Of a stretch of DNA of 64,000 nucleotides, positions 10,711 to 27,390 are shown in pieces. This DNA comes from Clostridia bacterium (GTDB lineage: Bacteria > Bacillota > Clostridia > Oscillospirales > CAG-272). The position numbers were made by a program, and so were the translations under genes. The stretch's first letter is position 1, and each line of letters opens with the position of its first letter. The notes under the pieces were generated by a model. That model made no database searches. It had not been told where the DNA came from and saw only the letters and a list, made by a program, of their open reading frames with translations. The stretch spans positions 3,729-67,728 of the forward strand of contig JAFTKJ010000011.1 in the NCBI GenBank assembly GCA_017453305.1, written 5' to 3'.

Positions 10711-10784
10711 AGCTAAGTCATCCTTTTTTAATAACATATTTCCCCATACGGAGGATCAATATAGGCGTTCTGCCTACTGACCAC

Positions 10785-10813
10785 ATTTTACCATATAAAA
10801 GAGCTTTTGTCAA
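10785..10813 (-). promoter_or_regulatory. Sigma-A promoter of GH31-C (TTGACA-17-TAAAAT, TGn)
   Basis: Minus strand reads TTGACAaaagctcttttatatggTAAAAT. It lies about 68 nt upstream of ATG 10710. Confidence 0.6.
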
Positions 10814-10879: not shown

Positions 10880-10915
10880 ACAAAGAAAAGTGCCGCAGGA
10901 CAACGCCTGCGGCAC
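10880..10915 (-). terminator. Rho-independent terminator ending the 14-kb ABC/giant-protein operon
   Basis: On the minus strand a 10-bp GC-rich stem (GUGCCGCAGG / CCUGCGGCAC) with a 6-nt loop is followed by UUUUCUUUGUU. Confidence 0.75.
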
Positions 10916-10934
10916 TCGAGAGTATAAACTTGAA

Positions 10935-12116
10935 TTAGTTTGCAAGACCGGATTGCTCGATACCCTGTACCAGGAAGTTCTGACAGAAGGCATACAAGAC
11001 TACCAGAGGAGCAATGATCATCAAACCGCAGGTGTTACGAATTGCGGTTTCATACAATTGCTGTCCTGCGCCCGCCACATTCTTCAAGGATTCCGGAATC
11101 TCACCTACAAGGTCAACCAAAAGCTTGTTTGCATCCATCGTACCGGTATTGATCAACGAGATGTAGAAGTCGTCGGTCCACTGCCAGCAGAATGCGAACA
11201 GGAATACGGTTACCAGCATCGGGATAGACAAAGGCAGAATGATCTGAATGAAGGTACGGAACGTGCCGCAACCGTCCATGTATGCAGATTCTTCAAGTTC
11301 GTCGGGAATTCCACGGAAGAACTGACGGAGCAAGAAAATGTACAGACCGTTCTTGAATGCCAAACCGGTGATAGAGAGGATGATCAAAGGCAGGTAAGAG
11401 TTTGCAAGGTTCATACCGGTCTCCTTAAACTGAAGGAGAATCGGCTGACCGAACTCATCCTCACCCAACGGGATACCGTCGGGGAGTACGTTGATGCTGC
11501 TGAAGAAGTTTGCAACACCCTCGTTAATATCCTTGATGTTCCAATCGAAGATCTGGATTCCGCCACCCTTGAGCAGACGAACGATGCCAAGAATATCGAA
11601 GTTACGGAACTCCAGGTACATTGCATGCTGCAGAGTTTGGTGAGGAATGATCATGGTCAGCATTACCAAAAGGAATATCAGATTTCTGCCGCGGAATTTG
11701 AACTTTGCAAATCCGTAGCCGATCAAACTACAAATCAACATCTGCAGTATAGCAGTGGAGAACGAGAGGATAAAGGAGTTCAGCAACGCCTGAAGATATC
11801 CAAGCTCGGTAACGATACCCTTATAGATATCAAACGAGAAGTGCTTCGGAATCAAACGAACGGTAACGTCGATGAAGTCCTGAGGCGCCATCACGGAGCT
11901 CGTAATCTTGGATACGAAGGGGAAAATAACGATGTAGGAGATACCTACCATCAGCACGAAACGGAAGATGGCAAGTGCAACCTTTTGAAGGAAGTAGAAA
12001 GACAGGAACTTTGCCTTCAATCTTTCCTTTAAGGGCGTACGGTCAAACTCAACGCGGATCTTATTCTTTGTTTCGCGCTTGATCGCAGGCTTCTTTTCAG
12101 TATTTTGTGCGTTCAT
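10935..12116 (-). CDS. Carbohydrate ABC transporter permease (MalG-like, 393 aa) with a ~50-60-aa extracytoplasmic insertion
   Basis: EAA loop EESAYMDGCGTFRTFIQIILPL and multiple TM helices. AGGAGGAG lies 5 nt upstream of ATG 12116. The unusually long loop spans aa ~160-240. Confidence 0.85.
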   Translation of the reverse strand: MNAQNTEKKPAIKRETKNKIRVEFDRTPLKERLKAKFLSFYFLQKVALAIFRFVLMVGISYIVIFPFVSKITSSVMAPQDFIDVTVRLIPKHFSFDIYKGIVTELGYLQALLNSFILSFSTAILQMLICSLIGYGFAKFKFRGRNLIFLLVMLTMIIPHQTLQHAMYLEFRNFDILGIVRLLKGGGIQIFDWNIKDINEGVANFFSSINVLPDGIPLGEDEFGQPILLQFKETGMNLANSYLPLIILSITGLAFKNGLYIFLLRQFFRGIPDELEESAYMDGCGTFRTFIQIILPLSIPMLVTVFLFAFCWQWTDDFYISLINTGTMDANKLLVDLVGEIPESLKNVAGAGQQLYETAIRNTCGLMIIAPLVVLYAFCQNFLVQGIEQSGLAN

Positions 12117-12132
12117 GTTTTCTCCTCCTTTC

Positions 12133-13113
12133 TTAGTCGTTCTTACGCTGATAGAAGACGAATCCGGACATGATCGCTGCGATTACGGCAACGATTGCAA
12201 TAACGATGGCGAAGTAGATCCATGCCATTGCGGTACTGACCTCCTGAGAGGACTCGGTATAAGCCTTTTGTACGTATACCATGACCGGGTTACTCTCGGT
12301 GGTAAACGAGTCGATGACCGTGTATACGGCGTTAACCAAAATCATCGGAGTGATCATCGGGAAGGTGATCTTCCAGAAGGTTTCCCATGCGGTAGCACCG
12401 TCGATCTTACAGGACTCGTAAATTGCGGGAGAAATGGACTGCAGAGCAGCCAGGAAGATCAGCATCTGTACACCGGAACGGTTAACGATATCAAAGATGT
12501 TGTTAACCATGTCGGCAACGTAGACAACAAGCTCGGAACCGACCTTCATATTTGCAAACAGAATCTGCAGGTCCATTGCCGATACAAGGTCTCCTGCGCT
12601 TGCGCCGCCTTCACCCAAATCGATTTCTTCCTCCATCTGATCCATCAACACGTCCATGGAGGCAATGCTCTCCATAATACCGGTGGAAAGAATAACGGGG
12701 ATGAAGAAAATGGAACGGAACACTGCTCTACCCATCATCTTCTGGTTCAGCATAACTGCCATGAAGAGTGAGAAGATCAGAATTGCGGGAATATCGATTG
12801 CCAAGGTACCAAGACCGGAAACCAGAATTTGCGCATAATCCGTATCTTCAAACAGCGCTGCGCTGTAGTTGGTCCAGCCGGTCCATACCAAATCGTATGA
12901 ACCGCTGGCACCACCAATCACGATCGTGCTGAAGCTGATTTGAATCGACTGCCAGATCATGGGAAGGTAGATCAGTACAAAACCAATCAAAAACGGAAGA
13001 ACAAAGAACCAACCGGCACGCGCCTTGCGGCGGTCAAGAGAGACAATCTTCTTTCTGCGCTTCGGCGCCGTTTTTTCAGCAGCCGATGCATTCATTTTTA
13101 CATCTTTTGTCAT
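12133..13113 (-). CDS. Carbohydrate ABC transporter permease (MalF-like, 326 aa)
   Basis: Six TM helices with the typical N-terminus RRKARAGWFFVLPFLIGFVLIY. EAA-like region ESCKIDGATAWETFWKITFPMI. GAGGAGGA lies upstream of the ATG. Confidence 0.85.
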   Translation of the reverse strand: MTKDVKMNASAAEKTAPKRRKKIVSLDRRKARAGWFFVLPFLIGFVLIYLPMIWQSIQISFSTIVIGGASGSYDLVWTGWTNYSAALFEDTDYAQILVSGLGTLAIDIPAILIFSLFMAVMLNQKMMGRAVFRSIFFIPVILSTGIMESIASMDVLMDQMEEEIDLGEGGASAGDLVSAMDLQILFANMKVGSELVVYVADMVNNIFDIVNRSGVQMLIFLAALQSISPAIYESCKIDGATAWETFWKITFPMITPMILVNAVYTVIDSFTTESNPVMVYVQKAYTESSQEVSTAMAWIYFAIVIAIVAVIAAIMSGFVFYQRKND

Positions 13114-13130
13114 AAAGCATTGTCCTCCTC

Positions 13131-16100
13131 TCAGTTATTCTCGTACATAATGATGATGTAACCGCCGCTGGGCACAGTGTACAATACACCGTTGTAGGTT
13201 ACGCGAACTGCATAGCTGTTGTAGTTCAGAATGATGCTCTTATAAGGCGTCTTTGCAAAGGTGTCGGGATCGCGGTCACCGTAGGTAACAACTGCGATCT
13301 GGTTGTTGTTGACTGCACCAAAGCCGGATTCATCCTCAGAATCATCCTCTTCGTCACTGCCGCCAACCTGAACCTGTGCCAGGATCTGCTCCTTGGAGAA
13401 CAGCGTGCAAGCTGCCATAAGATCGGTATAAACCTGCTCGGAATATGCCTGACCTGCGTGCTTTCCGCCTTCTGCGAAGCTCGTCTTAAAGGCTTGGGTA
13501 ATCGACTTCATCGCCTCGTCCAAGAAGTAAGAAGAGCTTTCGGGATTCAGGAAATCGTAACCCTGTTCAGGATCGAAGTAATAAGAACTCTCGCTTTGAA
13601 TACGGGCAACGTACTTCATAGCCTCCGTATGAGCTGCTTCCATCTGAGCCACCAGCTTTGCTCTGGTCTCTTCATCGTTGTTGTAGACTTCAGTGGTCTT
13701 CACCAGCTCGATTGCTGCTACCATAGCTGCAACGGTCTCATCTGCCTGCTGCTGCAGGTATCTGATATCCTCGGAGAGCTGAGCCAGCTTTGCAGACTTT
13801 GCGCGGAGAGAAGACAGCTGGAGAGATACCATGTCGATGGAGTCCTTATACATTGCATCGGAACCGAACACTTCGGGATCAATAAGCGCAAAGTCGGTAA
13901 CAACTTGGTCGATAGCAGATCCAAAGCTTACCTGCTCGGAAAATGCCATGTAGTTGGTATCCACAGCAGAGTTTGCTTCCTGAAGCTGGGTCAAGAAGTT
14001 CTTCATCGTTTCTTCTGCATGGTAGAGCAAGCTCCATGCGTTTGCAACGGAGATAACGTCCTCGGTTTCGGAATCCTGCTGGAGCTGATCCTCATCCTTG
14101 ATTGCGTTCTCCAAGCGATCGGCAATATCTGCCTCCAGCTCGTCAAGGTCGAGTACACGCTCGCCTACCAGGAATTCGTGATCGATGATCAGCTTATCCT
14201 GTACGTCGTGCAATACGTTGTTCAGCTCATTGTAGTACTTAGCAACGTCCTCAAGCCAAATATCATAACGGATGGAGTAGTACTGACTGAGGTAAAAATC
14301 CTCCTTCAACTCCGTGGTGTTCTGATAAGAGAGAATGAAGTAGATGCTGGAACCGTTTTCGATTGCTCTCAGGAGAGCGTAGTTTGCGTTACCCTCTTCG
14401 TTCAAAGGAGTGCCTGCAAACTGAACGTAGCCGTGCAGAACTGCGCCGATGAAAGGAACGGTTGCGCTTGCCTCCAGATAGCGGCTGGAGTCAAGGTCTA
14501 CGTTAAGAATGTGATCTACATACTTCCAGGTATAAGCGTTTCCACCCTCAACCATCAGGCTGTAGCCTGCATTCTTGATGTCCTCAAGTGCCTCGGTAGT
14601 GTACTCCTTGCTCTCCTCGCGGTTGTACATATCCTCTTCATCGAAGTCGGAGTTCAATGCATTACCGAGAGTTGCAACAGACATCGAGTTTACACCGTAT
14701 TCCTTGTAGTTTTCAAGGAGCTTAGTATAGAACTTACTGAAGCGAGAAGGCGAAATTGCCAACTGATAGAAGGATACGAAGGTCTGCTGGGTTGCGCTAT
14801 ACGAACGGAAGGAGGTATAGCGGTTGTCGATGGTCTTAACTGCGTCATCGCGCAATACAAAATCATCAAACAAATCGTTTACTTCGGAGTAAGCGAAGTT
14901 AAAGTCGGGATACAATCCCAGGTGAGAGCCGTCTGCCAGCCCGTTGATGCGATTTGCCTCAGCAGCAAGAGCATGGAAGCCCTCCTTGCCGCCTACCTTC
15001 TTTTCCCACTTCAGGGCAGAAGGCATGGTAGCGTACATACCGCCGTTTGCAAAACCGGTCATCTTAAAGTTGATGTTCTTAACGTCATAATCGCCCAACT
15101 CGTTGTACATCGTCAACAGATTTTCAAACGTCGTCAGGGGAGTCATGACCCATACGGGAATGGTTGCAATGCTTTCCTGCGTTTCAAGGGCACCGAATAC
15201 CTCGATGTAAAGCGGAATATCGTCCTTGATTCTTTCTTTCAGTGCAGTATTGGAAAGAACACCCGTGGTGCACAGATAATCGCGATACGCCTCTGCCATA
15301 CCCAGCCAGGAAGCGGAGTAATGCTTGTGCGTATGCTCGCCCTCTGCTGCGTTCTCAAGGTTTGCGTCATCGCAAAGCAGGACGTAGCGGAGCGTAAAGC
15401 TGCCCGTGTACTTTCTATCCGACTGGATATTTACGTTTTTGCTCGAGCTTGCAGAGATCGCGTCGGACAAATCGTAGCTATCGTGAGGCTTCGGATTGAA
15501 GTAGGGGTATACAGTGCTGTAGTTGTGCAATGCACCGCCGTGATACAGCTGGAATCTGGTAAAGGAATCTGCTTCCTCAACCATTGCCACGTATGCACGC
15601 TTAGAAACGGTCAGAGTATCTGCGATATTTCCGGAAAGGAGGGTTGCACCCATCGTTTCCAGCTCCTCCTCGATCTGCTCAAGGGTCTTGACCGAGTTGG
15701 ACATGCGAACCGTGATCGGTTCGGATTGCTCACCGGTCTCGGGATCGGGAGCAGTGTAGGTGTACTCATAGAAGATCTCGCTGCTCACTGCACCGTAAAC
15801 GGGATAGCGAACAACCTTTTGGAACTTGAGTCCCAGCAATTGGTGATAAGCGAAGTCCTCACCGTAAACATAGCCCAAAAGCTTTTCGGTGGAGGTGCCC
15901 AGCTGTGCGTGATCAAACAACGCACCGGAGCCATCCGGGAAGAAGGTGTAGCTTGTGGAAACATCCTCTACCAGGTTTCCGTTATCATCCAGATAGGAGT
16001 AGTTGAAGCCTGCGTTTTTGTAGTTACTTGCTCCCATGTAAGGAAGGATAGACAGGTTCTCCAGGGTGTAGGAGGACATATCGTAACGCAGACCGTTACA

Positions 16101-17051
16101 AGGCAGACGAACGGAAAGACCGTTTTCGTCCATGTAGTACTCCAATGCCATCTTGAACACGGGGTACTTTTCGTCCTCTGCTTCATAACCAACGGCTTCG
16201 TGGTCAAGGTCCAGCTGCTCAAAGGTGTACTCGGGGCAGTACATCTTGATCCACTCTTCACGCTTGATCATGTCACTCATACTGATCATGTTGCTCAGAT
16301 ACTGATAAATGACAGGATACACGGTTTTGCCGTTCTCATCGATGTAGAACTCACCCAAAATAGGGTACTTCTTGGTAAACTCGATTCTCTGGAGCATACT
16401 CATATTGTTGGGGTCGATCTTCTGCCATGCATTGATGAACCAATCGTAGTCGAATTGCTCCAATTCGCCGCGCTCAACAACTTCTCTGATTTTAGAAAGG
16501 ATGTTAGGCTCGAAGCTATCTTCCAAAATCAATCTCGGAATCAGCTTTCTGCCGTCCTCACGACCGATGGTGTACTCAACGCGCACACCGCCCTTGATCA
16601 ATTGAACCTTGAGCTGGTCGTTCAGTGCTGCATCCTTGTAGCTGTACAGATTCTTGGAGGTACCGGTGTTATCCTTGTACGCTACAATGATCTGAGACAG
16701 CAGCTCTTGCTTGGTGGATTCACTACCCTTGGACGCAGCAACGTCATAAGGGTTGGAGAACAGGATATTTTCAGTGGGATTGCCCTCTGCATCAGTCTCC
16801 ACGTAAGCAACTTCACCGCTCTTAACGTCTACCCACAGCTGGAAGTTACCAAAGGTACGCATCGGCTGCATGGTAGCAAGCTTTTCCTGCGGGTTGTTGT
16901 AAACTTGAGTAACGTATTTTTCAATCGGAACGCTCACGGTCTCCGTGGTGGTTTCATCTGCCGAGACCTGCACCGTTAACAGTGCCGTGAACATGCCAAG
17001 CACCATTGTGACAGCTAAGAGTGTCGAAAGTATGCGTTTTGTTAATTTCAT
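13131..17051 (-). CDS. Exported 1306-aa protein of unknown function (signal peptide, large mixed alpha/beta core, ~270-aa helical region, acidic linker, small beta-rich C-terminal domain)
   Basis: N-terminus MKLTKRILSTLLAVTMVLGMFTALLTVQVSA/DE. AGGAGG lies 7 nt upstream. No LPXTG motif, lipobox, SLH or dockerin is seen. It may correspond to what some annotations call a DUF5696-type protein; this is from memory and unverified. Confidence 0.8.
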   Translation of the reverse strand: MKLTKRILSTLLAVTMVLGMFTALLTVQVSADETTTETVSVPIEKYVTQVYNNPQEKLATMQPMRTFGNFQLWVDVKSGEVAYVETDAEGNPTENILFSNPYDVAASKGSESTKQELLSQIIVAYKDNTGTSKNLYSYKDAALNDQLKVQLIKGGVRVEYTIGREDGRKLIPRLILEDSFEPNILSKIREVVERGELEQFDYDWFINAWQKIDPNNMSMLQRIEFTKKYPILGEFYIDENGKTVYPVIYQYLSNMISMSDMIKREEWIKMYCPEYTFEQLDLDHEAVGYEAEDEKYPVFKMALEYYMDENGLSVRLPCNGLRYDMSSYTLENLSILPYMGASNYKNAGFNYSYLDDNGNLVEDVSTSYTFFPDGSGALFDHAQLGTSTEKLLGYVYGEDFAYHQLLGLKFQKVVRYPVYGAVSSEIFYEYTYTAPDPETGEQSEPITVRMSNSVKTLEQIEEELETMGATLLSGNIADTLTVSKRAYVAMVEEADSFTRFQLYHGGALHNYSTVYPYFNPKPHDSYDLSDAISASSSKNVNIQSDRKYTGSFTLRYVLLCDDANLENAAEGEHTHKHYSASWLGMAEAYRDYLCTTGVLSNTALKERIKDDIPLYIEVFGALETQESIATIPVWVMTPLTTFENLLTMYNELGDYDVKNINFKMTGFANGGMYATMPSALKWEKKVGGKEGFHALAAEANRINGLADGSHLGLYPDFNFAYSEVNDLFDDFVLRDDAVKTIDNRYTSFRSYSATQQTFVSFYQLAISPSRFSKFYTKLLENYKEYGVNSMSVATLGNALNSDFDEEDMYNREESKEYTTEALEDIKNAGYSLMVEGGNAYTWKYVDHILNVDLDSSRYLEASATVPFIGAVLHGYVQFAGTPLNEEGNANYALLRAIENGSSIYFILSYQNTTELKEDFYLSQYYSIRYDIWLEDVAKYYNELNNVLHDVQDKLIIDHEFLVGERVLDLDELEADIADRLENAIKDEDQLQQDSETEDVISVANAWSLLYHAEETMKNFLTQLQEANSAVDTNYMAFSEQVSFGSAIDQVVTDFALIDPEVFGSDAMYKDSIDMVSLQLSSLRAKSAKLAQLSEDIRYLQQQADETVAAMVAAIELVKTTEVYNNDEETRAKLVAQMEAAHTEAMKYVARIQSESSYYFDPEQGYDFLNPESSSYFLDEAMKSITQAFKTSFAEGGKHAGQAYSEQVYTDLMAACTLFSKEQILAQVQVGGSDEEDDSEDESGFGAVNNNQIAVVTYGDRDPDTFAKTPYKSIILNYNSYAVRVTYNGVLYTVPSGGYIIIMYENN

Positions 17052-17072
17052 TTCTAAACCTCCTATCTGCCT

Positions 17073-19217
17073 TTATACACGGTACTGGATTTCTGTAATA
17101 ATGTTGGAAACAAGGCCGACCAGCTTTGCAAGCAACATACTGAACAGAAGCACCAGGAACACGATAAACGCCATTGCAACGATGGTACCAATAATGGTGA
17201 TCAGGTTCTTGAACAGCGAGTAATCGTGCGTGATCATCGTACCGAAGAACAGCAACAATGCAACCCAGATGAACGCGATGGTTGTGACCATCTCAACGAT
17301 TGCAACCTCGGTGGTGCTGACCCAGTTGGATCCCAGCGTTGCGGGGATAACCAAAAGAATCAGAGGCATCAACGAATACGACGATGCAATAAAGATGTCC
17401 TTAAAGCTACCTTCACCCTCCATCAAGGTGGTCAAGCACCAGTTTGCAAGGACGAAGAGGAACAGGGGAACCAATACGGAAATTGCCTGTGCCCAAATGG
17501 TGGTGGTGTTACCGGTAGGATTCATAACGTAACCCTGACCGATGCCCTGGTAGAAGAATGCAACTACCGTCAATGCAATGAATACCAAGGATGCGCGAAC
17601 GGATCCGCGGTGCTCATGCTTTAAGTCGTAGAAGCCGTCAAACGGATGGAAGATCACGTAGAAGCCGTAAAGAAGCTCATGGCCAAACGCTTTTCTTTCC
17701 TTACCGTCGGTAGCAACACGCTTGTTGACCTTTGCAGCCCAACCCAGGAACTTGATGATAGCAACGATCAAAACGATGATGATCGCTACGATAGGCAGGA
17801 ACCATACCGACATCCACTCCTTACGTACCATCTTGTACGCCTCGGACCAGTTTTCGGTATCGTATGCACTTTCATAATACTCCAATGCTTCGCCATAGTC
17901 TGCGCTACGGTACATCGCGTTACCGATACCAACGTATGCGGCGTCGAAGTTAGAGTTTCTCTGCAGAACCTTCTTCCAGCACTCGATTGCGAAATCGTAG
18001 TCCAGGGAGTTCTCTGCTGCGATTGCCTGAACCAGCAGATCGCCGTACTCGGTACGGTCATAAATAATAATACTGTTGGAGCCTGCATCCAGGATGATCA
18101 TCTTGTTGCCCTGATATGCAATTGCACCTACGTTTGCGATACTACCCAACATGGTACCGGTATCACCAAACGCAAACAAAAGGTTACCGTTAAAGTCGTA
18201 GGTGTAGATCTTCTCACGCTTGGTATCCACAATGGACCAAGTCTTTTCGGGACCTGCTGCTACGTCAACGACGGTGGAAACACCGCTGATCTCGGAGCCG
18301 GTAAAGCCGAAGATATCGATTTCACCTGCCGGAGGCCAGAAGCCGTTACGTCTCATAATTTCGTCACCCGAGGGGTTAAGCAACTTAACGGGCATATACT
18401 TACCGTCCTTGGACTTACCTCTGATTGCACCGGATACCGAACCTTCCTCGATACCTGCGGTGGTTACGTAGATAAATCCGTCGTCGGTAATTGCGATGTT
18501 GTTGTAGACAACGGAGGTCTTACCATAGGTCAGCTTTCTCTGTGCCTCAGTCTGGAAGTTTCTCCAAAGAATCTCCCATGCGGAAATGGTAACTGCCTGT
18601 GCACCGATGAATCCTACAAATTCACCCTCAGAGTTCATAACGATGATACCCTGGTTGGTGGAGGAGGATACAACATAGATTCTGCCGTACTGGTCAATTG
18701 CCATTGCCACGGGCTTGTATGCCGCGTTTGCATCGAACAACTGGCTTTCGGGAGCGTCCAGAATCTGCTTGAATTCACGAGTCTTTTTATCAAACTCGAT
18801 CAAACGGCTGTTACCGGTGTCACACACCCAGATGGAGGTATCGGTAACGAATACTCCCTCGGGAAGGGAGAACTTATCGTTGTTACCTGCGCTGTTCTGG
18901 AAGGTGGTGATGCATGCTTGATACTCGAAGTAACGGTTGAGGATCAGGATCTGGTTGTTACCGCTGTCGGCAATATAGATGTTGCCTTCCTTATCGGTAA
19001 TCAGGTCCTTAGGATCCTTCATATCCTGCGGCAAACCCATTTCTACGTACGTCAGCGCTTCCTCGGGAGAATACGCATCGGGAGAATAGAGGGCGGAGCC
19101 GTCGATGGAGTAGGTATAGGTCTGATAAGCGGAAGATGCGGCAGTGCCGATCGTCATCATCGGAATGAGCATTGCGAGAGACAATATCAGCAATAAAACG
19201 GATGTAATTTTCTTCAT
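17073..19217 (-). CDS. Exported NHL-repeat beta-propeller + TPR-like segment fused to a C-terminal multi-pass Yip1-like membrane domain (714 aa)
   Basis: Signal peptide MKKITSVLLLILSLAMLIPMMTIGTAASSA. NHL-like blades (GNIYIADSGNNQILILN, IWVCDTGNSRLIEF, RIYVVSSSTNQGIIVMN, NKMIILDAGSNSIIIYD). TPR-like region AIECWKKVLQRNSNFDAAYVGIGNAMYRSADYGEALEYYESAY. About 6 TM helices from aa 471. AAGGAGGG lies upstream. Confidence 0.8.
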   Translation of the reverse strand: MKKITSVLLLILSLAMLIPMMTIGTAASSAYQTYTYSIDGSALYSPDAYSPEEALTYVEMGLPQDMKDPKDLITDKEGNIYIADSGNNQILILNRYFEYQACITTFQNSAGNNDKFSLPEGVFVTDTSIWVCDTGNSRLIEFDKKTREFKQILDAPESQLFDANAAYKPVAMAIDQYGRIYVVSSSTNQGIIVMNSEGEFVGFIGAQAVTISAWEILWRNFQTEAQRKLTYGKTSVVYNNIAITDDGFIYVTTAGIEEGSVSGAIRGKSKDGKYMPVKLLNPSGDEIMRRNGFWPPAGEIDIFGFTGSEISGVSTVVDVAAGPEKTWSIVDTKREKIYTYDFNGNLLFAFGDTGTMLGSIANVGAIAYQGNKMIILDAGSNSIIIYDRTEYGDLLVQAIAAENSLDYDFAIECWKKVLQRNSNFDAAYVGIGNAMYRSADYGEALEYYESAYDTENWSEAYKMVRKEWMSVWFLPIVAIIIVLIVAIIKFLGWAAKVNKRVATDGKERKAFGHELLYGFYVIFHPFDGFYDLKHEHRGSVRASLVFIALTVVAFFYQGIGQGYVMNPTGNTTTIWAQAISVLVPLFLFVLANWCLTTLMEGEGSFKDIFIASSYSLMPLILLVIPATLGSNWVSTTEVAIVEMVTTIAFIWVALLLFFGTMITHDYSLFKNLITIIGTIVAMAFIVFLVLLFSMLLAKLVGLVSNIITEIQYRV

Positions 19218-19227
19218 ATTGCCCTCC

Positions 19228-20100
19228 TTAATCCTTCATACCGCTGGAGCCCATCGTCTCAATGATATTCGACTGAGAAATAACGAATACCAAAATCGGA
19301 ACCATCATCATCAACACGGTTGCGGCTGCAGATGCACCTGCACGCTTAATACCGCCTGCGGTGATCTGACCGATTGCGTAGTTGAAGGACTTGAGCTGCT
19401 CGGAATAGATGTAAATCGACGAACCTGCGTTCCACAAAGACTGGAACGAATAAATGATCAACGTCAGCCATGCAGGCTTAACCATCGGCATTGCGATCGT
19501 CCAATAGGTACGAATTTCGCTTGCGCCGTCAAGTCTTGCACTCTCCAAAACGGTATCCGGAACTGCAGAGTCCATAAACTGCTTCATCAAGTAAAGACCC
19601 AAGGTGTAGCCCCATGCGGGAACGATGATTGCCCAGTAGGTGTCAACCATGCGGAATGCACTCATCAACATAAAGCCGGTGATTGCACTAACCGTCTGGT
19701 GGAACATCAGAGAGGTCTGAATGGTGGTAAACACGAGCTTACCGCCGGGGAACTTGATCTTTGCCAATGCGTATGCACACATAGAAGCAATGAACAAGTG
19801 TCCAAACGTACCCATCACAGAGGTGAATACGGTGTTAAAGATGTAACGCGAGAACGGAACCCACGAATCGTTCATCAAGGTGAACAAGTCGGTAAAGTTG
19901 GACAGCGTCGGGTTTTGCACGATGAATCTCGGAGGATACATCCACAACTCATCCAAAGGCTTGAGCGACTGAGAGATAACGTACACCATGGGGAGGAACA
20001 TGAAGATACCGAGAAGCGTCAGTACAACGGTAATACCGGCATCGCCTCCCGCAGAGCGGGATAATACGACTCTATGCTTTCTTGTTCTTAATCTTGCCAT
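19228..20100 (-). CDS. Carbohydrate ABC transporter permease (MalG-like, 290 aa)
   Basis: EAA loop ESARLDGASEIRTYWTIAMPMV and six TM helices. The start is 1 nt after the upstream stop. Confidence 0.9.
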   Translation of the reverse strand: MARLRTRKHRVVLSRSAGGDAGITVVLTLLGIFMFLPMVYVISQSLKPLDELWMYPPRFIVQNPTLSNFTDLFTLMNDSWVPFSRYIFNTVFTSVMGTFGHLFIASMCAYALAKIKFPGGKLVFTTIQTSLMFHQTVSAITGFMLMSAFRMVDTYWAIIVPAWGYTLGLYLMKQFMDSAVPDTVLESARLDGASEIRTYWTIAMPMVKPAWLTLIIYSFQSLWNAGSSIYIYSEQLKSFNYAIGQITAGGIKRAGASAAATVLMMMVPILVFVISQSNIIETMGSSGMKD

Positions 20101-20101
20101 A

Positions 20102-21049
20102 TTAAGTACCTACCTTTGAGAGAGCTTTCTTAACGATCGTGTTCGCAACGATCATGATCGTAAAGAGTATAACGGCAATGGTGGAAGAATAACCGATCTC
20201 GTAACGGGCTCCGCCGTAGTCGTCCAAATGGTGCGTAATGGTATGTGCTGCGTAGTCAACCGAAGGGAATCCGCAAAGTGCGGTAACGACACCACCAAAA
20301 CCAAAGGAATTGGTGATTGCCATGACTGCACCGAACATCAGCTGCGGCTTCATGCTCGGAAGAGTGATATACCAAAGCTCCTGCCAACGGTTCTTGACAC
20401 CGTCAACGGCACCTGCCTCGTACAGGGAGCGGTCTACGCCCTGCAAACCTGCGATAAAGGACAGGAAGGAGTGACCCAAGGAGGTCCAGAGTGCAACCAC
20501 AATACACAAAGGCATGATGTAATCGGCATCCTTAAACCACTGGATCGGCTCGGTGATCATACCCGTTTCGATCAGAGTTGCGTTAACCCAACCGTAGGAG
20601 TCACCGGAGAACAGCGTACCCCAGATCATATACACCTGACCGGAAATGGAAGGTGCATAGAAGATCAAGGTTACAACCGCACGGATGCGGGGAGGCAGCT
20701 CGTTGATGAACCAAGCTACCAGGAAGGACATCAAGTAGGAAGCAGGTCCTACGATGGCCGCAAAGATCAAGGTGTTCTTGCAGGCGATGAGGAAGATATC
20801 GTCTGCAAAGAACAGGTTGACGTAGTTCGTAAGCCAAACGAAGTTCGGCCATTGCAACATGTTAAAGTCGGTAAAGCTGATGATGAAGGACAGGATGACC
20901 GGGAAAATGGTAAAGAGTGCGAAAATCAGCACGTAAGGAAGGATCATCAGGTATGCAACCCAATTTCGTCTCATTTCTCTCCGCACGTATTGACCATAGG
21001 TCATGTCTTTTCTGGCAACCGCTTTATATTCTGTCTTTTCTTTTGACAT
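20102..21049 (-). CDS. Carbohydrate ABC transporter permease (MalF-like, ~315 aa)
   Basis: EAGAVDGVKNRWQELWYITLPSM EAA loop. Start chosen at MSKEKTEYK (ATG 21049) behind AAGGAGAAAG. The ORF is open to a TTG at 21091 that overlaps the SBP stop. Confidence 0.85.
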   Translation of the reverse strand: MSKEKTEYKAVARKDMTYGQYVRREMRRNWVAYLMILPYVLIFALFTIFPVILSFIISFTDFNMLQWPNFVWLTNYVNLFFADDIFLIACKNTLIFAAIVGPASYLMSFLVAWFINELPPRIRAVVTLIFYAPSISGQVYMIWGTLFSGDSYGWVNATLIETGMITEPIQWFKDADYIMPLCIVVALWTSLGHSFLSFIAGLQGVDRSLYEAGAVDGVKNRWQELWYITLPSMKPQLMFGAVMAITNSFGFGGVVTALCGFPSVDYAAHTITHHLDDYGGARYEIGYSSTIAVILFTIMIVANTIVKKALSKVGT

Positions 21050-21087
21050 TTGCTCTTTCTCCTTACATTTGTATTTTAGAAGAGGTC

Positions 21088-24000
21088 TCAATAAGAAGCG
21101 AGTGCCTCAGCAGTGTCGCGCAGCGCCTCTGCGATGAAGTAGATCAGCTCAAGCTCGGACAGATCTTTAATTGCGTATCCGCCGACGTCATAGCCGTCCT
21201 TCTTCTCGGGCTCAAGAGTCTGCTTGGTTACGTTATTATAATAGGAAGGAACCGTTTCGAGATCGCCGTTCACCTTCATGATCTCCTTTGTGCTCTTATC
21301 CCATTTTGCTGCCAAGAGCTCGTCAAAGAGGATTGCTGCTTCTTCCAAACGAACGATATTACCGTTGACAATACCGTACATTGCCTTATCGATTGCTGCC
21401 TGATACTGCGCAACGTCGGAAGTAGTTTCCTTCAATGCGTCAATCGCAGTTCTGATCTGGTCGGATCTCTTTTCGGAAAGCTTCTGACCAAGCTCCAGAG
21501 TTTCAAGTCCAAACTCCTTACGCTTACGGGTGATCTCGGTGTTGATGGTGTTGATGTAGCTCAACAGCTCGGTGGTCGGATCTGCGCCGTCATTGTATGC
21601 GGAGAGGAATGCGAAGTTGGTGTGACGTCCAATGAAGTAGAATCCGGGGTAGTTTTCAATTGCGGAAAGGTTCTCAAACTGCTTGGAAACCTCGATGTAC
21701 TCATCGTAGGTCCAAGGCATACTTGCAAGTGCCTCGCGGTTTGCGGTGGAGTGCTTTGCGGAGTCACCGATGATAGCAACCATTTCGTTCGCGTATGCGA
21801 TCTGTGCCTCTGCGCCGGTGTACCAGCACATGTAATCCCAAGCGTCCTTGGTGTTGGTGGTACCGGAGATCATAACGACTGCCGCAGTAGCTGCCATGGT
21901 CTGGTTATCGATCTTGCCGGTCTCCTCGTTCAGCGTTCCGGGAACGGGAACGAACGTCCAACAGCCGTCCAACTCGGTTGCAAATACCTTCAATTGGTTA
22001 TAAAGGCCGGTGTAACCAGCAAGGATGATGGGCATTTCACCGGTTCTGAAACGGTTTGCCGCATCGTACTGATAGGGGAAGGAATACTGCGTGAACATGT
22101 CACACATCTTGTTAAACGCTGCCAAGCCGTACTCGGAGTCGAGGTTGATTCTCATACCCTCGTCAGCCCAGATGCTACCGCCCATCTGATAGAGGAAGGG
22201 CATGTAGTCGGTGGTAACACCGATTTCCATGTTGTTGGACTGAAGCTTGGACTGTGCTACGTACAGGTCATCCCAGGTGCGAGGAATTTCAATGCCAAGA
22301 TCCTGCAGAACGTCCAGACGAACAAACATCATAGAGAAGCTCTGCGTTTCGGGCAGACCGTAGTAGTGCATGATATTATCTGCGTCCGCGATACGAAGAA
22401 CCGTCAGCGCAGCTTCATTAAAGTTGGAAATAACGTCCTCGAAGTTATCGGGGTCAATATCCTCAACCTGGAGCAATGCTCCACGAATTGCATAGTTGAT
22501 AACCGTGTCGTCGCCCAGACCGTGGTATACGTCAGGTCCCATGCCTGCCAGGATAGAAGGCAGGAGCGTACCGCCGGTAACCAGCTTCAGGTCTACGGAC
22601 TTGCCATACTGCTGAGTAAAGCTGTTGGTTGCAAGGTTACGAATAACGTTTGCCTGGTCACGACCGTAAGGAACCCATACGGTGATCGCTTCAACATTCT
22701 CACCAAGCTCCTCGGTAGCACCCATGCTGTTGTAGTCACGGAAGAAACTCCAGAAGAAGCCTCTGATCTCGTGCCAGAATGCCTGGAAGAAGTTTGCGGA
22801 AGCCTTGGGAGCCTCAACCTCTGCAGGCTGGATCACAAGGTAGTCAAGCTGCAACGGCTGGGTCTTTGCGTCGCTCAGGAAGGTACCCAAGGAACCAACG
22901 TAGCTCTTGAAGGTATCCAGGTTCTTTGCGATGGGGTCACCGCCCTTGATAACCATTCTGCCAAGCAAATCTACCAATTTATCACATACGCCCGTGTAGG
23001 TGGATGCAACGCCCGCACCCTCGCGCAGGAATTGAGAAATCGCAGTCAAGGAGTCGATCTCTGCAAACATGCTGTCCAGAGTCTCGGGAAGCATACTATA
23101 GAATTTGTAATCACGGTAGTCGTCGGGGGTAGTACCGGTCAACTGAATGATATCCAGATAGTCCTGGTTGAGCGCATTCAGAATACGCTCGATCTCGCGG
23201 ACGGTATCACTCATCGTACCAAAGGTAACCTTAAGATTGATGGTGTAAATAACACCCTTTTGGAAGTAAAGCTGATAGCTTTCATCCGAAAGATTACCGG
23301 TAGAGGACAGCTTGGTAACCTGCCAGTCGGTACCGTAGTCGTAGCGAAGACCTGCAGCCTCGGAGAAGGGCAAGCCGTTGTAGTAGCCCGCTGCGGTGTT
23401 CTGAGCCGCAACGTAAGCCTCTTCGCTCTCGTAGTTGGTAGTAATCGTCAGTGCGCGGCTGACGTACATACCGTCAAGGTAACTCTGCTTAAAGCGCGCA
23501 TAAATGTCATACCAACCGGAATCGTCAACGGAGAAGGAGTACTCAACCCACTGACCTGCAGTTGCCCACTTTTCGGTACCAATGGTGTTCAGGATCATTC
23601 TCTTGGGATCCACGGGAGAGGTCAGTGCAGATGCACGGTCCTCAATCGGGTAAATAACGTTGGTGGAGGTTTTGTTGGTGTTCTCTGCCTCGATCTTGAT
23701 CACGCTGGTGCCGTTCTTGGTGCCAACCAACTTCTCAAGAGCCTTACGGTAATCTGCATAGGAATAGGTGGACTCGTAAGGAAGAAGCGTCAGCGTGGAA
23801 AGAGCCATAGGCTCGTTGACGCTGTCAAGAGCGATCTTAACAAGACCGTTTTCATCGGGAGTCAGCACAAAGCCGAAGTGCTCACTGTCGTAAGTTCCAA
23901 CTTTTTCGCCCTCTGCGTTCACAGCCTCGTAATAGTGCGTATAACCGTCGCTATCACTGATGATGTAATTTCTCCACTCGGGAGTCTGCAGCTGAGTGGG

Positions 24001-24993
24001 ACGAATCTCGTTGTTGTTGATATCGGTTGCGAGGAAGCGCAGACCGTATTTTGCAACAAACGCGCTGTTTTTGGCAGTGGAATACTCAGGCTGAACAAAG
24101 GTGATGGACTTTTGGTCCTGCGCTACCGTGTAGGTAACGTTTGCCTTGAAGCCTGCATCCTCAGCCTCGGCAACGATCGCGTTCAGATCATCTCTGCCGC
24201 CAAGGGTGTAGGTTGCAACCAGAGCCTTCAGGTTTGCATCCGTATCACCGGTGGTGCTTCCCTGCTGATAAGAACCCCAGATTTTGGAGAACAGCAGTGC
24301 ATGCGCCTCGGAGAAAACGGGCTTACCATTAATGTAAAGCTCACGCTCGATCGCAGAAGATCTTGCCACAACGGGGAAATAATCCAAGCCGATGCGGTAA
24401 AGCGTAGCGGCAGTAATGCCCTCTGCCTTCAGATCAACCGTCCAGGTCACCTTGCCGCGGCCGGGAGTATAGATCGCTTTCACGCCCTGGTACTCATCGG
24501 TAACGTATGCAAGGTCGGACGCCTTGTACTTTGCCTTGCCATTATCGTCCTTCGCTGCAAGCGCGTCCTCCAGGGAAGCATAGGTCTCTGCAATTGCACA
24601 CAGACGACCATCCTCCACCGTGTACAGCTCACTTGCTGCGTAGCCCGCCGCGGTAGCCTCGGCAACAGTCTCAAAATAATCCTTGGAGAGAACGGTCATC
24701 TTCCATACACCGTCTGTCATGGTGATGATGACGTTGTCACACTCGTAAACCCAGTTATCGGTCAAGAGAGCCGTAATCTCCTTGGTTGCCTGTGCCGCGT
24801 TGGCAAAATACATTGCCTGATACTCGGCATAGGAAACCATGTTCAGGGTTTCCTTGTAGTGCTCAATGGATTTGTCCGTAAGGTTGTCGTTTACTACCGT
24901 AGCACCGACAGCCGTTACAGCGCTGCTCACAAGACACATGAGTGCCAAAGCCAAACAAAGGAGTCTTGTGAAAGTCTTGTTTCTCATTTGCAT
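21088..24993 (-). CDS. Giant (~1301 aa) extracellular solute-binding protein: N-terminal beta-sandwich/CBM-like modules + helical linker + family-1 SBP domain + helical C-terminal tail
   Basis: Start MQMRNKTFTRLLCLALALMCLVSSAVTAVGA (ATG 24993, with GGAGGA immediately upstream). CBM-like module VIKIEAENTN...WVEYSFSVDDSGWYDIYARF at nt 23218..23703. SBP-like module ITVWVPYGRDQ... at nt 21529..22692. Confidence 0.85.
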   Translation of the reverse strand: MQMRNKTFTRLLCLALALMCLVSSAVTAVGATVVNDNLTDKSIEHYKETLNMVSYAEYQAMYFANAAQATKEITALLTDNWVYECDNVIITMTDGVWKMTVLSKDYFETVAEATAAGYAASELYTVEDGRLCAIAETYASLEDALAAKDDNGKAKYKASDLAYVTDEYQGVKAIYTPGRGKVTWTVDLKAEGITAATLYRIGLDYFPVVARSSAIERELYINGKPVFSEAHALLFSKIWGSYQQGSTTGDTDANLKALVATYTLGGRDDLNAIVAEAEDAGFKANVTYTVAQDQKSITFVQPEYSTAKNSAFVAKYGLRFLATDINNNEIRPTQLQTPEWRNYIISDSDGYTHYYEAVNAEGEKVGTYDSEHFGFVLTPDENGLVKIALDSVNEPMALSTLTLLPYESTYSYADYRKALEKLVGTKNGTSVIKIEAENTNKTSTNVIYPIEDRASALTSPVDPKRMILNTIGTEKWATAGQWVEYSFSVDDSGWYDIYARFKQSYLDGMYVSRALTITTNYESEEAYVAAQNTAAGYYNGLPFSEAAGLRYDYGTDWQVTKLSSTGNLSDESYQLYFQKGVIYTINLKVTFGTMSDTVREIERILNALNQDYLDIIQLTGTTPDDYRDYKFYSMLPETLDSMFAEIDSLTAISQFLREGAGVASTYTGVCDKLVDLLGRMVIKGGDPIAKNLDTFKSYVGSLGTFLSDAKTQPLQLDYLVIQPAEVEAPKASANFFQAFWHEIRGFFWSFFRDYNSMGATEELGENVEAITVWVPYGRDQANVIRNLATNSFTQQYGKSVDLKLVTGGTLLPSILAGMGPDVYHGLGDDTVINYAIRGALLQVEDIDPDNFEDVISNFNEAALTVLRIADADNIMHYYGLPETQSFSMMFVRLDVLQDLGIEIPRTWDDLYVAQSKLQSNNMEIGVTTDYMPFLYQMGGSIWADEGMRINLDSEYGLAAFNKMCDMFTQYSFPYQYDAANRFRTGEMPIILAGYTGLYNQLKVFATELDGCWTFVPVPGTLNEETGKIDNQTMAATAAVVMISGTTNTKDAWDYMCWYTGAEAQIAYANEMVAIIGDSAKHSTANREALASMPWTYDEYIEVSKQFENLSAIENYPGFYFIGRHTNFAFLSAYNDGADPTTELLSYINTINTEITRKRKEFGLETLELGQKLSEKRSDQIRTAIDALKETTSDVAQYQAAIDKAMYGIVNGNIVRLEEAAILFDELLAAKWDKSTKEIMKVNGDLETVPSYYNNVTKQTLEPEKKDGYDVGGYAIKDLSELELIYFIAEALRDTAEALASY

Positions 24994-25063
24994 TTCCTCC
25001 TGCAAGTAATTAACACTCCGCCCGTTTGTTTTCGTTTGCGCCGCAAGGGGAGAACGTAGGCTT

Positions 25064-25095
25064 CCCATTGCAGTCGGGTACACCGCCCATTGCAG
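25064..25095 (-). repeat. Direct 10-nt repeat (plus-strand CCCATTGCAG x2, 22-nt period) inside the operon leader
   Basis: Exact copies at 25064..25073 and 25086..25095. They lie between the predicted TSS (~25188) and ATG 24993. Confidence 0.8.
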
Positions 25096-25194
25096 CTTTG
25101 GACGATGGTTTTCGCCAATTCTGCACGGTGCGATATCAAACAAACTCTACCAAACGGTCGGATTTTGGGCAGAGTTTCCCCAAATATATATTAT

Positions 25195-25223
25195 ATTGTA
25201 CCATAAAACCGCCTTTCTGTCAA
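25195..25223 (-). promoter_or_regulatory. Sigma-A promoter of the 14-kb operon (TTGACA-17-TACAAT, TGn)
   Basis: Minus strand reads TTGACAgaaaggcggttttatggTACAAT. This implies a leader of about 195 nt. Confidence 0.6.
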
Positions 25224-25665: not shown

Positions 25666-25719
25666 AAAAAAGTCGACCGTTTGGCAGATCCTTCTACAAA
25701 AATCCACCAAACGATCGAC
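25666..25719 (-). terminator. Rho-independent terminator after sufB
   Basis: On the minus strand a 13-bp stem (GUCGAUCGUUUGG / CCAAACGGUCGAC, one mismatch) is followed by UUUUUU. Confidence 0.7.
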
Positions 25720-25756: not shown

Positions 25757-26674
25757 TTACTTCAAAAATCCGTTGACAATATGCTCCTCGGCTTCTTTTT
25801 CGGAAAGCCCCAACGTCATCAGCTTGATCAGCTGTTCCCCTGCAATCTTTCCGATTGCCGCCTCGTGGATCAAGGAAGCGTCCACGTGATTTGCCTCGAT
25901 CTGCGGCAGAGCCGTGACCTGAGCATCATCCATAATGATTGCATCACACTCGGTATGTCCCGAGCACTTGTTATTTCCGTTGACGTGAGACAAAAAGCTC
26001 TGACGGCTTTGGTCCTTTGCAACGGAGCGTGAGATCACGTGTGTACCGCAATCCTCGCCATTGAGATCAACGGTAAAGTTGGTCTCGGCAAATTGCGTGC
26101 CGTGCGTCATAATCTTCTCGCGAACAATGAGCGTCGCGCCATCGTCCAAGGTCGCCTTGGTGTCACGCCTGGTGGAATCCACCCCCTTGATTTGCGCGGT
26201 CTCCATTTCCATATAGCTGTTTTTGCCAAGGACAGCTATCGTCGTGGGGTTCATCACGTTCTTTCCCGTGCCCTCACCGTCACCGTAGTGCTTTTCAATA
26301 TACTTGACCTTGGCACCCTCGCCCAAATAAAAGGCGTGAATACCGCTATGCTCGCTTTCAAGGCTGCCGCTGTTATGAATTCCACAGCCCGCCACGATGG
26401 TGATATCGCAGTCGGCGCCGATGTGAAAATCGTTGTAGACCAGCTCCTTCAACCCCGTTTGCGAAAGCAGAACGGGAATATGCAAGCTCTCTTTTTTGGT
26501 ACCGGGCTTAACGTAAATATCAATTCCGGACTTGTCCTCTTTTTTGACAATGGTAATATTTTCGGAGTCGTTTTTACCGTACAGATTGCCGTTGATGCGC
26601 AAGGAGTACGCCCCCTGCGGAACGTCATGCAGATCAGCGATCTGCTCTAACAGATTCTTTTGAATTGCATCCAT
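25757..26674 (-). CDS. sufB: SufB/SufD-family Fe-S cluster assembly protein (short clostridial form, 305 aa)
   Basis: Beta-helix-type sequence (IVAGCGIHNSGSLESEHSGIHAFYLGEGAKVKYIEKHYG). It is translationally coupled (TAATG) to the upstream SufC-like ATPase. The family assignment comes from the pairing and sequence character. Confidence 0.7.
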   Translation of the reverse strand: MDAIQKNLLEQIADLHDVPQGAYSLRINGNLYGKNDSENITIVKKEDKSGIDIYVKPGTKKESLHIPVLLSQTGLKELVYNDFHIGADCDITIVAGCGIHNSGSLESEHSGIHAFYLGEGAKVKYIEKHYGDGEGTGKNVMNPTTIAVLGKNSYMEMETAQIKGVDSTRRDTKATLDDGATLIVREKIMTHGTQFAETNFTVDLNGEDCGTHVISRSVAKDQSRQSFLSHVNGNNKCSGHTECDAIIMDDAQVTALPQIEANHVDASLIHEAAIGKIAGEQLIKLMTLGLSEKEAEEHIVNGFLK

Positions 26675-27390
26675 TATTTGCGCACCTCCTCAAAGAAACG
26701 GCACCCAGCCTGCACGCCCAAAAGCTCGGGCAGGATCTCGTTCTTGGTCCCGTAAGCCGCGACCTTGCCGTCCGCAATCACGATGATCTTATCGGCAATG
26801 TCCAAAATGCGCTCTTGGTGTGAAATAATCAGGATCATCCCTTTGGTTCTTTCGTACATGTTGCGAAAAACCTGGATCAGATTGTTAAAGCTCCAAAGAT
26901 CGATTCCCGCCTCCGGCTCGTCAAAAACCGAAAGCTTTGTGCCGCGCGCGTTGATCATCGCGATCTCGATGCGCTTCAATTCACCGCCCGAGAGTGAGCC
27001 ATCCACCTCGCGGTTGATATAATCCTTTGCGCAAAGACCGACCTCGGACAAATACGAGCAAGCCTCGGCAACCGAAATGTTTTTGCCCGACGCAATGGAG
27101 ATCAGCTCCTTGACGGTAATGCCCTTAAAGCGCACGGGCTGCTGAAATGCGAAGCTGATGCCGCACTTTGCGCGCTCGGTGATCGACAAACCTGTAATAT
27201 CCTCCCCATCCAAAAGAATTTGACCGGAGGTAGGAACGTAGATTCCCGCAACAAGCTTTGCCATTGTGGATTTTCCGCTTCCGTTGGGACCGGTGATCGC
27301 GACGAAACGATCATCGATCTGCAGGCTGACGTCACGGATGATCTCCTTGTGGTCGGGAGTTTCATAAGATACGTGTTTGAATTCTAACAT
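26674..27390 (-). CDS. sufC: SufC-type ABC ATPase
   Basis: Walker A GPNGSGKST, signature LSGGELKR, Walker B LSVFDEPEAGID, H-loop IISHQ. There are no adjacent permease genes. Confidence 0.8.
   Translation of the reverse strand: MLEFKHVSYETPDHKEIIRDVSLQIDDRFVAITGPNGSGKSTMAKLVAGIYVPTSGQILLDGEDITGLSITERAKCGISFAFQQPVRFKGITVKELISIASGKNISVAEACSYLSEVGLCAKDYINREVDGSLSGGELKRIEIAMINARGTKLSVFDEPEAGIDLWSFNNLIQVFRNMYERTKGMILIISHQERILDIADKIIVIADGKVAAYGTKNEILPELLGVQAGCRFFEEVRK

Follow-up and report, generated by a model that had tools for sequence, protein, structure and literature searches.

A conserved seven-gene cassette with two CUT1-type permease pairs, an NHL-TPR-Yip1 protein and a DUF5696 protein in Clostridia and Bacilli

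Sugar importers of the ATP-binding cassette (ABC) type in Gram-positive bacteria are usually pictured as a single binding protein with a single permease pair, powered by a shared ATPase, and CUT1 importers (TC 3.A.1.1) include MalEFGK2 and systems energised by MsmX. Two other kinds of system invite comparison with the locus described here. One is covered by the concept of Gram-positive polysaccharide utilization loci (gpPULs; PMC5320581). The other is YknWXYZ of Bacillus, in which the Yip1-family membrane protein YknW is an accessory to an ABC system whose YknYZ component is a MacB/FtsX-type exporter working with a membrane-fusion protein and protecting against a peptide toxin (PMC4887032); it was the only system recovered by literature searches for Yip1 and NHL proteins together with an ABC transporter. 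The subject of this report is a seven-gene operon, designated g1 to g7, on the minus strand of a 64,000-nt stretch of contig JAFTKJ010000011.1 (the window; all positions are those of the window). It encodes a giant solute-binding protein (g1), two MalF/MalG-like permease pairs (g2/g3 and g6/g7), an NHL-TPR-Yip1 membrane protein (g4) and an exported DUF5696 protein (g5). On balance, the operon probably specifies one ATP-driven, CUT1-type glycan-uptake unit with two translocators and three obligatory accessory proteins, for which we infer the complex, the substrate and catalysis by the DUF5696 protein.

The arrangement of the seven genes was assessed in other genomes. A scan of one genome per species returned 232 species with a relative, and 79 loci, all from uncultured gut or rumen Clostridia, were kept. 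These loci were probed by tblastn with the seven window proteins, and gene order was scored where the contig was long enough. In every such locus the order was g1-g2-g3-g4-g5-g6-g7 on one strand, with g5 identity ranging down to 38%. Eight further loci had the same order at 23-59% identity: those of Butyrivibrio fibrisolvens, Paenibacillus cellulosilyticus, Neobacillus kokaensis, Cohnella luojiensis, a second Paenibacillus and three metagenome assemblies, the Butyrivibrio and P. cellulosilyticus loci having been found by a plasmid-database search. The B. fibrisolvens D1 cassette (pNP243) encodes, in order, a binding protein (977 aa), two permeases, an NHL protein, a YIP1 protein, a DUF5696 protein and two further permeases. 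In P. cellulosilyticus a UgpC ATPase is followed by a binding protein (986 aa), two permeases, a YIP1 protein (719 aa), a DUF5696 protein and two permeases. An earlier note on this DNA had claimed that the genes form a single unit, with conservation of the neighbourhood as the check; the gene set is syntenic in Clostridia and Bacilli, and order and strand are kept in all long-enough loci of the 79 and in the eight distant ones. That note had also pointed to uncharacterised neighbourhoods of Yip1, large unknown and ABC genes. Such loci do exist, and literature searches returned no paper on DUF5696 or PF18952.

Permeases of the first pair were 36-59% identical to first-pair permeases of the other taxa, and those of the second pair were 34-41% identical to second-pair permeases; within one genome the two pairs were about 24% identical. 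For example, g2 was 56% identical to the first-pair subunit of Butyrivibrio and 43% identical to that of Paenibacillus, while g6 was 41% and 34% identical to the respective second-pair subunits and 24% identical to g2. Judged by these sequence identities, each position of the cassette is orthologous across Clostridia and Bacilli, which indicates that the cassette is old and that its seven positions were kept together through the divergence of the two classes. No DUF5696 gene was found without the other six among approximately 88 loci, wherever the contig allowed the check. The most conserved component was g3, with 74-99% identity across the 79 loci and the lowest mean distance (0.18). Partial correlations of the distance matrices were 0.62 for g2-g3, 0.40 for g4-g5, 0.33 for g1-g3 and 0.31 for g5-g7. 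These values agree weakly with the pairing of components in the mechanism proposed below and are suggestive only, since a correlation can arise trivially between proteins that evolve at similar rates.

In the window, an open reading frame (ORF) scan placed the seven genes head to tail from 25143 down to 10935, with intergenic distances from g1 to g7 of -4, 1, 10, 21, 17 and 16 nt (Table 1). The promoter-like site ahead of g1 lies inside an AT-rich intergenic stretch of approximately 600 nt. In a scan of 16.5 kb it was among the two top-listed sites, the other of which, also with 11/12 matches, heads a group of glycoside hydrolase family 31 (GH31) genes. The terminator after g7 was likewise among the two top-listed in that scan, the other strong one ending the upstream gene. 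The total of promoter-like sites in the scanned region was at or below chance, being no higher than in shuffled sequence, and only these individual sites therefore carry weight. No Rfam family matched anywhere in the window, so no riboswitch was found in the leader of approximately 200 nt, and a search for cre sites gave matches at chance level, none of them near the promoter. The seven-gene, minus-strand operon that had been proposed from promoter to terminator was thus recovered in its ORFs, its small gaps and its signals. The domain labels proposed with it were mostly backed by the Pfam and NCBIfam profile scans that were run on all seven proteins (BPD_transp_1, NHL/TPR/Yip1 and DUF5696).

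All four permeases have the BPD_transp_1 domain and the cytoplasmic EAA-type loop that characterize CUT1 membrane subunits. In NCBIfam the nearest families are UgpA/MalF-like for g2 and g6 and UgpE/MalG-like for g3 and g7. The loops read EAGAVDG in g2, ESARLDG in g3, ESCKIDG in g6 and ESAYMDG in g7; they are near-invariant over 35 taxa and are retained in Butyrivibrio and Paenibacillus. On this sequence evidence, g2/g3 and g6/g7 are two complete heterodimeric membrane domains of type I importers. The EAA coupling loop is kept in both pairs, and both should therefore dock an ATPase dimer of the MalK/MsmX type. The CUT1 rule of one binding protein per permease pair is broken here and in every relative examined, the core cassette having two pairs and one recognisable binding fold.

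No MalK-type ATPase with a C-terminal regulatory domain was found in the 64-kb window, which in this respect falls short of a complete CUT1 importer. The earlier note had treated the lack of an ATPase as a special feature, a view that did not hold. Shared orphan MsmX-type ATPases are usual in Firmicutes, and the missing gene is ordinary because all four permeases retain the EAA coupling loop. Moreover, a gene for a MalK/UgpC-type ATPase lies directly upstream of the cassette in P. cellulosilyticus, the second Paenibacillus and Neobacillus; the encoded proteins have ABC_tran, OB_MalK and TOBE_2 domains and pass the UgpC subfamily cut-off. The only ABC ATPase of the window (238 aa) is encoded upstream of the operon and is translationally coupled to a 305-aa SUFBD_core protein, and both members of this pair score under the NCBIfam SufC, SufB and SufD cut-offs. 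It was considered as the energiser of the operon and rejected, since it has no MalK-type C-terminal domain, it is translationally coupled to a SufB/D-like gene and a strong terminator follows it.

The start of g1 is most likely the ATG at 24987 (MRNK...), giving a product of 1299 aa, because AGGAGG lies 8 nt upstream and the consensus of the homologues also begins MRNK. g1 begins with a signal/anchor helix; beta-rich domains take up approximately 560 aa and are followed by a helical bundle, the CUT1 binding fold (residues ~715-1165) and a helical C-terminal tail. No Pfam match was obtained for g1 itself, even in a low-threshold scan. PF01547/PF13416 are found in its homologues, which go by the name 'extracellular solute-binding protein', and the family profile matched the sophoro-oligosaccharide-binding protein PDB 5ysb (E = 1.7e-11). 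Structures were predicted for g1 and g5 as monomers. In the AlphaFold2 (AF2) model of g1 (pLDDT 83, pTM 0.82), the fold at ~715-1165 superposed on 5yse, 9xf5 and MalE with TM-scores on the target of 0.7-0.8 (Foldseek). This segment has the characteristics of a family-1 extracytoplasmic binding protein of CUT1 importers and contains many invariant columns in the homologue alignment. The description of g1 as a giant solute-binding protein consequently stands for residues ~715-1165; the rest is beta-rich or helical.

The remainder of g1 gave few leads. A profile search of the PDB with its N-terminal 600 aa returned no match, and comparison of the model with viral structures (Foldseek) returned only weak beta-sandwich or lectin-like matches that were not interpretable. 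Neither a lipobox Cys nor a sortase motif is present in the g1 and g5 sequences. Conserved uncleaved N-terminal anchors of g1 and g5 in this clade were considered and rejected, as conservation of this region was average and AxA-type cleavage sites are present; in several Bacilli orthologues, the N-terminal helices resemble uncleaved anchors. The helical tail of g1 is confined to the gut Clostridia clade (loci L004-L082), as is a helical insertion in g5 (residues ~975-1245), and the Butyrivibrio, Paenibacillus, Neobacillus and Cohnella versions are without both.

g5 belongs to DUF5696 (PF18952; E = 2.7e-118, 396.6 bits against a cut-off of 25.6), a family of 3605 clusters at 50% identity among 1.84 billion representatives, with lengths of 700-2500 aa; more than 1400 relatives of g5 were found in a large protein collection. 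Its N-terminal signal/anchor helix precedes a beta-sandwich N-domain and a putative (beta/alpha)8 barrel; the helical insertion of approximately 270 aa and a conserved C-terminal beta element complete the protein. The AF2 model had a pLDDT of 71, with residues 35-595 confident and the barrel poor (pLDDT mostly below 60). In Foldseek, its best matches were structures of glycoside hydrolase family 129 (GH129), namely 5opq and 8rzk (E ~1e-12, top 9e-13) and 5wzn (8e-6), all at probability 1.0. GH129 supplied the only significant matches, the next unrelated one having E ~0.07. Searches of the PDB by phmmer, with a full-length profile and with a barrel-only profile gave nothing or coiled-coil noise, and a low-threshold Pfam scan gave no other family even at E <= 10. 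A relationship between DUF5696 and GH31 was also looked for and none was shown, hhalign against the neighbouring GH31 paralogues (a related clan) giving a probability of 0.6%.

Residues of g5 that may form a functional site were sought by aligning g5 with its Butyrivibrio and Paenibacillus counterparts, which are 23-24% identical to it. Nine residues, D373, D399, D729, D802, R811, N838, H873, N884 and E898, are identical in the three proteins and are also invariant in a wider set. D802 and E898 would be candidates for the Asp nucleophile and the Glu acid/base expected of GH129. Some database sources name the Paenibacillus orthologues 'glycoside hydrolase'. g5 is, by its model, probably a protein of glycosidase-type fold with a conserved functional site, and it may be catalytic. 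The glycan connection that had been suggested for the two large proteins is consistent with the oligosaccharide-binding fold of g1 and the predicted GH129-like fold of g5. The length of g5 varied between 1208 and 1998 aa in 66 loci; the idea that g1 and g5 vary in length together was examined in the same loci and rejected, as no positive correlation was found (r = -0.46). Two DUF5696 proteins are present in Paenibacillus hamazuiensis, both listing the 8.77-Mb longest contig, and two in Paenibacillus sp. 32352, on different contigs. The cassette may thus occur as paralogous sets in some Paenibacillus, as expected of substrate-specialised uptake systems.

The third accessory, g4, gave Pfam matches to NHL and TPR, and its residues 520-689 matched Yip1 (PF04893) with 53.9 bits against a cut-off of 28.6. 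A scan for transmembrane (TM) segments found five hydrophobic segments in the Yip1 region. In Butyrivibrio, Cohnella and two further loci (L087 and L089), NHL-TM and Yip1 are encoded by separate adjacent genes; in some other loci they are fused.

Downstream of the cassette in the window are three cytoplasmic GH31 paralogues and then a two-component system, and upstream are the ABC ATPase/SufBD-like pair and a GH30 gene. No signal peptide was found in the three GH31 paralogues, which have alpha-xylosidase as best NCBIfam neighbour with scores far under the cut-off. Related loci hold one or two GH31 genes at the same place. Within the window's lineage, GH31 follows the cassette in about 8 of about 57 loci and alanyl-tRNA synthetase in 7 of about 57, and the SufBD-core gene lies upstream in 16 of 42. 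In distant taxa the genes around the cassette code for glycoside hydrolases of various families and for regulators of the LacI, AraC or two-component type: GH43 with a histidine kinase and a response regulator in Butyrivibrio; GH26, GH113 and GH9 with LacI in Cohnella; GH30 and GH35 with LacI in locus L087; GH2 and GH38 in Neobacillus; and GH78 in locus L003. A histidine kinase/response regulator pair lies beyond the GH31 genes of the window and another flanks the Butyrivibrio cassette (locus L083, 1..2605); either could regulate the system. In two Paenibacillus genomes (loci L084, 15316..24539, and L090, 17958..22355), three or four genes for luciferase-like (LLM) flavin oxidoreductases come after the cassette, interspersed with ordinary binding-protein genes.

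A mechanism can be proposed in which the operon consists of two consecutive units, g1-g2-g3 and g5-g6-g7, each made up of an extracytoplasmic partner, a MalF-like and a MalG-like protein, with the Yip1 protein between them. g1 would be kept at the membrane through its N-terminal helix or its partners, and its beta-rich domains and binding fold would catch an oligosaccharide or glycan chain and deliver it to the first pair. g5 occupies the slot in which a binding-protein gene would precede the second pair; at the cell surface it may work on the glycan that has been captured and pass it to that pair, whose enlarged outward loops would be suited to docking a large partner. g4 might tie the extracytoplasmic parts to the translocators, with Yip1 in the bilayer and the propeller and TPR facing outward. 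A MalK/MsmX-type ATPase encoded elsewhere in the genome would power both pairs, and the cytoplasmic GH31 enzymes would finish degradation in this organism. From the conservation of gene order, the proteins may reasonably be supposed to form a stoichiometric surface machine. A stronger form, in which a single membrane supercomplex has the glycosidase-fold DUF5696 protein in place of the second-pair binding protein, cleavage or handling is mechanically coupled to import and a Yip1 scaffold joins the translocators, is possible but doubtful; if true, it would amount to an enzyme-gated ABC importer.

Several observations weigh against a glycan-uptake unit with an enzymatic DUF5696 protein. In this clade, g1 and g5 start with what look like cleavable signal peptides, and their retention at the surface is assumed. 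The TM-scores of g5 with GH129 structures were 0.29-0.39 and the catalytic barrel of the model is of low confidence, the low scores being attributable to the poor modelling of the barrel. No sequence-profile link of g5 to GH129 or GH31 was found, and two acidic residues conserved in the clade, D716 and D854, are lost in distant DUF5696 members. Cassettes of the window's lineage mostly have housekeeping neighbours rather than carbohydrate-active enzymes (CAZymes). In two Paenibacillus cassettes, genes for luciferase-like oxidoreductases take the downstream position that glycoside hydrolases fill in most other distant taxa examined. Finally, the neighbouring hydrolase families differ widely, so that no single substrate can be named. 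The proposal of a Gram-positive analogue of a polysaccharide-utilization machine has only loose support: hydrolases and regulators flank the distant cassettes, but those of the window's own lineage lie mostly among housekeeping genes.

The same uptake unit would be retained if DUF5696 were not an enzyme and served instead as a glycosidase-derived binding or docking protein for the second pair, with g1 serving the first. The tandem order of partner, MalF-like and MalG-like genes suits this alternative, as do the outward enlargement of the second-pair loops, the partial correlation between g5 and g7 and the fact that neither the window nor the Paenibacillus cassette encodes a second canonical binding protein. 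The neighbouring hydrolases are also too diverse for a single glycosidase specificity, and N838, an invariant Asn, could occupy the acid/base position of GH101/GH129-type enzymes. D802, E898, D373 and D399 nevertheless remain invariant at 23% identity, as residues of an active site would, and ordinary binding-protein genes beside the cassette in Butyrivibrio, Cohnella, Neobacillus and locus L089 could serve the second pair; we regard a purely surrogate role as tentative and rather unlikely. That the operon simply holds two independent CUT1 importers together with unrelated surface proteins is improbable. Each pair does make up a full MalF/MalG-like heterodimer and has EAA loops of its own, and sugar operons with several transporters exist, but the seven-part order is invariant from 99% to ~23% identity in two classes regardless of the genes around it, no second binding protein belongs to the core cassette, and DUF5696 was never met without its six partners in the loci where the contig allowed the check.

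A quite different possibility is that the cassette is not a nutrient importer and that its ABC module or modules act as ATP-driven mechanotransmitters controlling DUF5696 in the remodelling of surface glycans, by analogy with FtsEX, which acts with coiled-coil hydrolase activators. The long helical insertion of g5, variable in length within this clade, would suit such a role, as would the setting of the cassette, which in this lineage occupies a conserved chromosomal site surrounded by housekeeping genes. YknW also shows that a bacterial Yip1 protein can be an accessory of an ABC system that is not an importer (PMC4887032). However, the permeases have the BPD_transp_1 membrane domains of type I importers and not those of FtsX/MacB-type proteins, g1 has a bona fide oligosaccharide-binding fold, the versions of g5 in Butyrivibrio and Bacilli lack the insertion, and genes for catabolic hydrolases and sugar regulators lie beside many cassettes. 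A mechanotransmitter is very unlikely, and we give it the least weight of the readings considered. The glycan-uptake unit with two translocators remains the reading we prefer.

The features of the window are collected in Table 1. Opposite the large genes there are very long antisense 'shadow' ORFs, reaching 1380 aa. TTA, CTA and TCA codons are almost avoided in ten genes (28 of 7184 codons, none in g1), which keeps the in-register antisense frame free of stop codons and accounts for these ORFs. The window also encodes four fusion proteins away from the operon, of which the AraC-type one is unusual.

Table 1 Features of the operon and of its surroundings in the window.
Feature	Position	Strand	Description
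Promoter-like site	25223..25195	-	Sigma-70-type TTGACA-17-TACAAT, 11/12 matches, TG extension
5' leader	24988..25194	-	~200 nt; AGGAGG ribosome-binding site 8 nt ahead of the ATG at 24987
g1	21088..24987	-	1299-aa exported giant solute-binding protein; mechanical ORF 21088..25143 with TTG start
g1 helical tail	21088..21590	-	Residues ~1165-1299, ending ..ALASY
g2	20102..21091	-	MalF/UgpA-like, pair 1; BPD_transp_1, best NCBIfam UgpA; TTG start uncertain
g3	19228..20100	-	MalG/UgpE-like, pair 1; BPD_transp_1
g4	17073..19217	-	Signal peptide, extracytoplasmic NHL beta-propeller, TPR, one TM helix, five-TM Yip1 domain
g5	13131..17051	-	1306-aa exported DUF5696 protein
g6	12133..13113	-	MalF/UgpA-like, pair 2; BPD_transp_1; enlarged extracytoplasmic loop ~154-215
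g7	10935..12116	-	MalG/UgpE-like, pair 2; split BPD_transp_1 match; ~75-aa extracytoplasmic insertion ~165-240
Intrinsic terminator	10917..10888	-	12-bp stem, 8 G-C pairs, T-rich tail, 18 nt past g7 stop
GH31 trio	2989..10813	-	835, 844 and 838 aa, 51-61% identical
Promoter of GH31 trio	10813..10785		11/12 matches
Histidine kinase/response regulator pair	973..2738	-	Beyond the GH31 genes
Terminator of upstream gene	25719..25672		Strong
ATPase/SUFBD_core pair	25757..27390	-	Translationally coupled
ABC ATPase of that pair	26674..27390	-	238 aa
AraC-type fusion	31655..33307	+	AraC_binding and HTH_18, fused to glucosamine-6-phosphate isomerase/6-phosphogluconolactonase-like domain
VanZ fusion	33627..35090	-	VanZ fused to metallophosphoesterase
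HTH_3 fusion	36531..37775	+	HTH_3 fused to PfkB sugar kinase
CN_hydrolase fusion	59445..61043	-	CN_hydrolase fused to glycerophosphodiester phosphodiesterase
Shadow ORF	20917..25059	+	Antisense to large gene
Shadow ORF	17646..19196	+	Antisense to large gene
Shadow ORF	13458..16979	+	Antisense to large gene
Shadow ORF	8533..10716	+	Antisense to large gene

The striking features of the cassette are its fixed seven-part architecture, a second translocator without a binding protein, and its Yip1 and GH129-like partners. It represents a deeply conserved alternative layout of an importer in gut, rumen and soil Bacillota. The modelled GH129-like glycosidase fold would be the first structural lead for DUF5696, and the cassette offers a concrete context for the role of a bacterial Yip1 protein. 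Since the hosts include cultured organisms, some of them from genera that are likely to be genetically tractable (Paenibacillus, and Butyrivibrio fibrisolvens D1), the capture and import of large glycans by monoderm bacteria becomes directly testable.

Among glycosidases, the GH129 enzymes, represented by the alpha-N-acetylgalactosaminidase NagBb of B. bifidum and the 3,6-anhydro-D-galactosidase ZgGH129 of Zobellia, provide the one comparison for g5. They have an N-terminal beta-sandwich followed by a barrel, a layout that g5 may share, judging by the secondary structure of its model. It differs from them in lacking detectable sequence similarity to the family, in its signal/anchor helix and extended helical insertion, and in its invariable gene position between the Yip1 gene and a permease pair. 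The cassette shares with YknWXYZ a bacterial Yip1 protein that is encoded, and presumed to act, with an ABC transporter. Its Yip1 domain, however, is fused to an NHL propeller and TPR, its ABC parts are permeases of type I importers, and no FtsX or HlyD-type protein was found in it by Pfam and NCBIfam. The SusC/SusD systems of Bacteroidota have in common only the idea that capture, surface processing and import are encoded together. This is an analogy, as the cassette is without a SusC/SusD-like protein, an outer membrane and TonB dependence, and no SusC or SusD domain was found in the seven proteins or their neighbours, as a Sus-like polysaccharide utilization locus would require.

With gpPULs the cassette shares, in several of the taxa that bear it, a transporter co-located with hydrolases and a regulator. 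Where gpPULs are loose and variable gene sets, the cassette is a rigid module of seven genes, found also where no CAZyme is nearby; a paper on a Paenibacillus xanthan locus does not mention its proteins. The closest resemblance is to the CUT1 importers, with which it has in common MalF/MalG-like permeases with EAA loops, an oligosaccharide-binding fold of cluster D and a MalK/UgpC-type ATPase that is adjacent to the cassette in some Bacilli or encoded elsewhere. In contrast to them, it fixes two permease pairs with one recognisable binding protein, embeds the binding fold in a protein of 1000-1300 aa without a lipobox, and includes obligatory NHL-TPR-Yip1 and DUF5696 proteins that have no counterpart in described importers. 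The cassette is thus a widespread, uncharacterised elaboration of the CUT1 importer.

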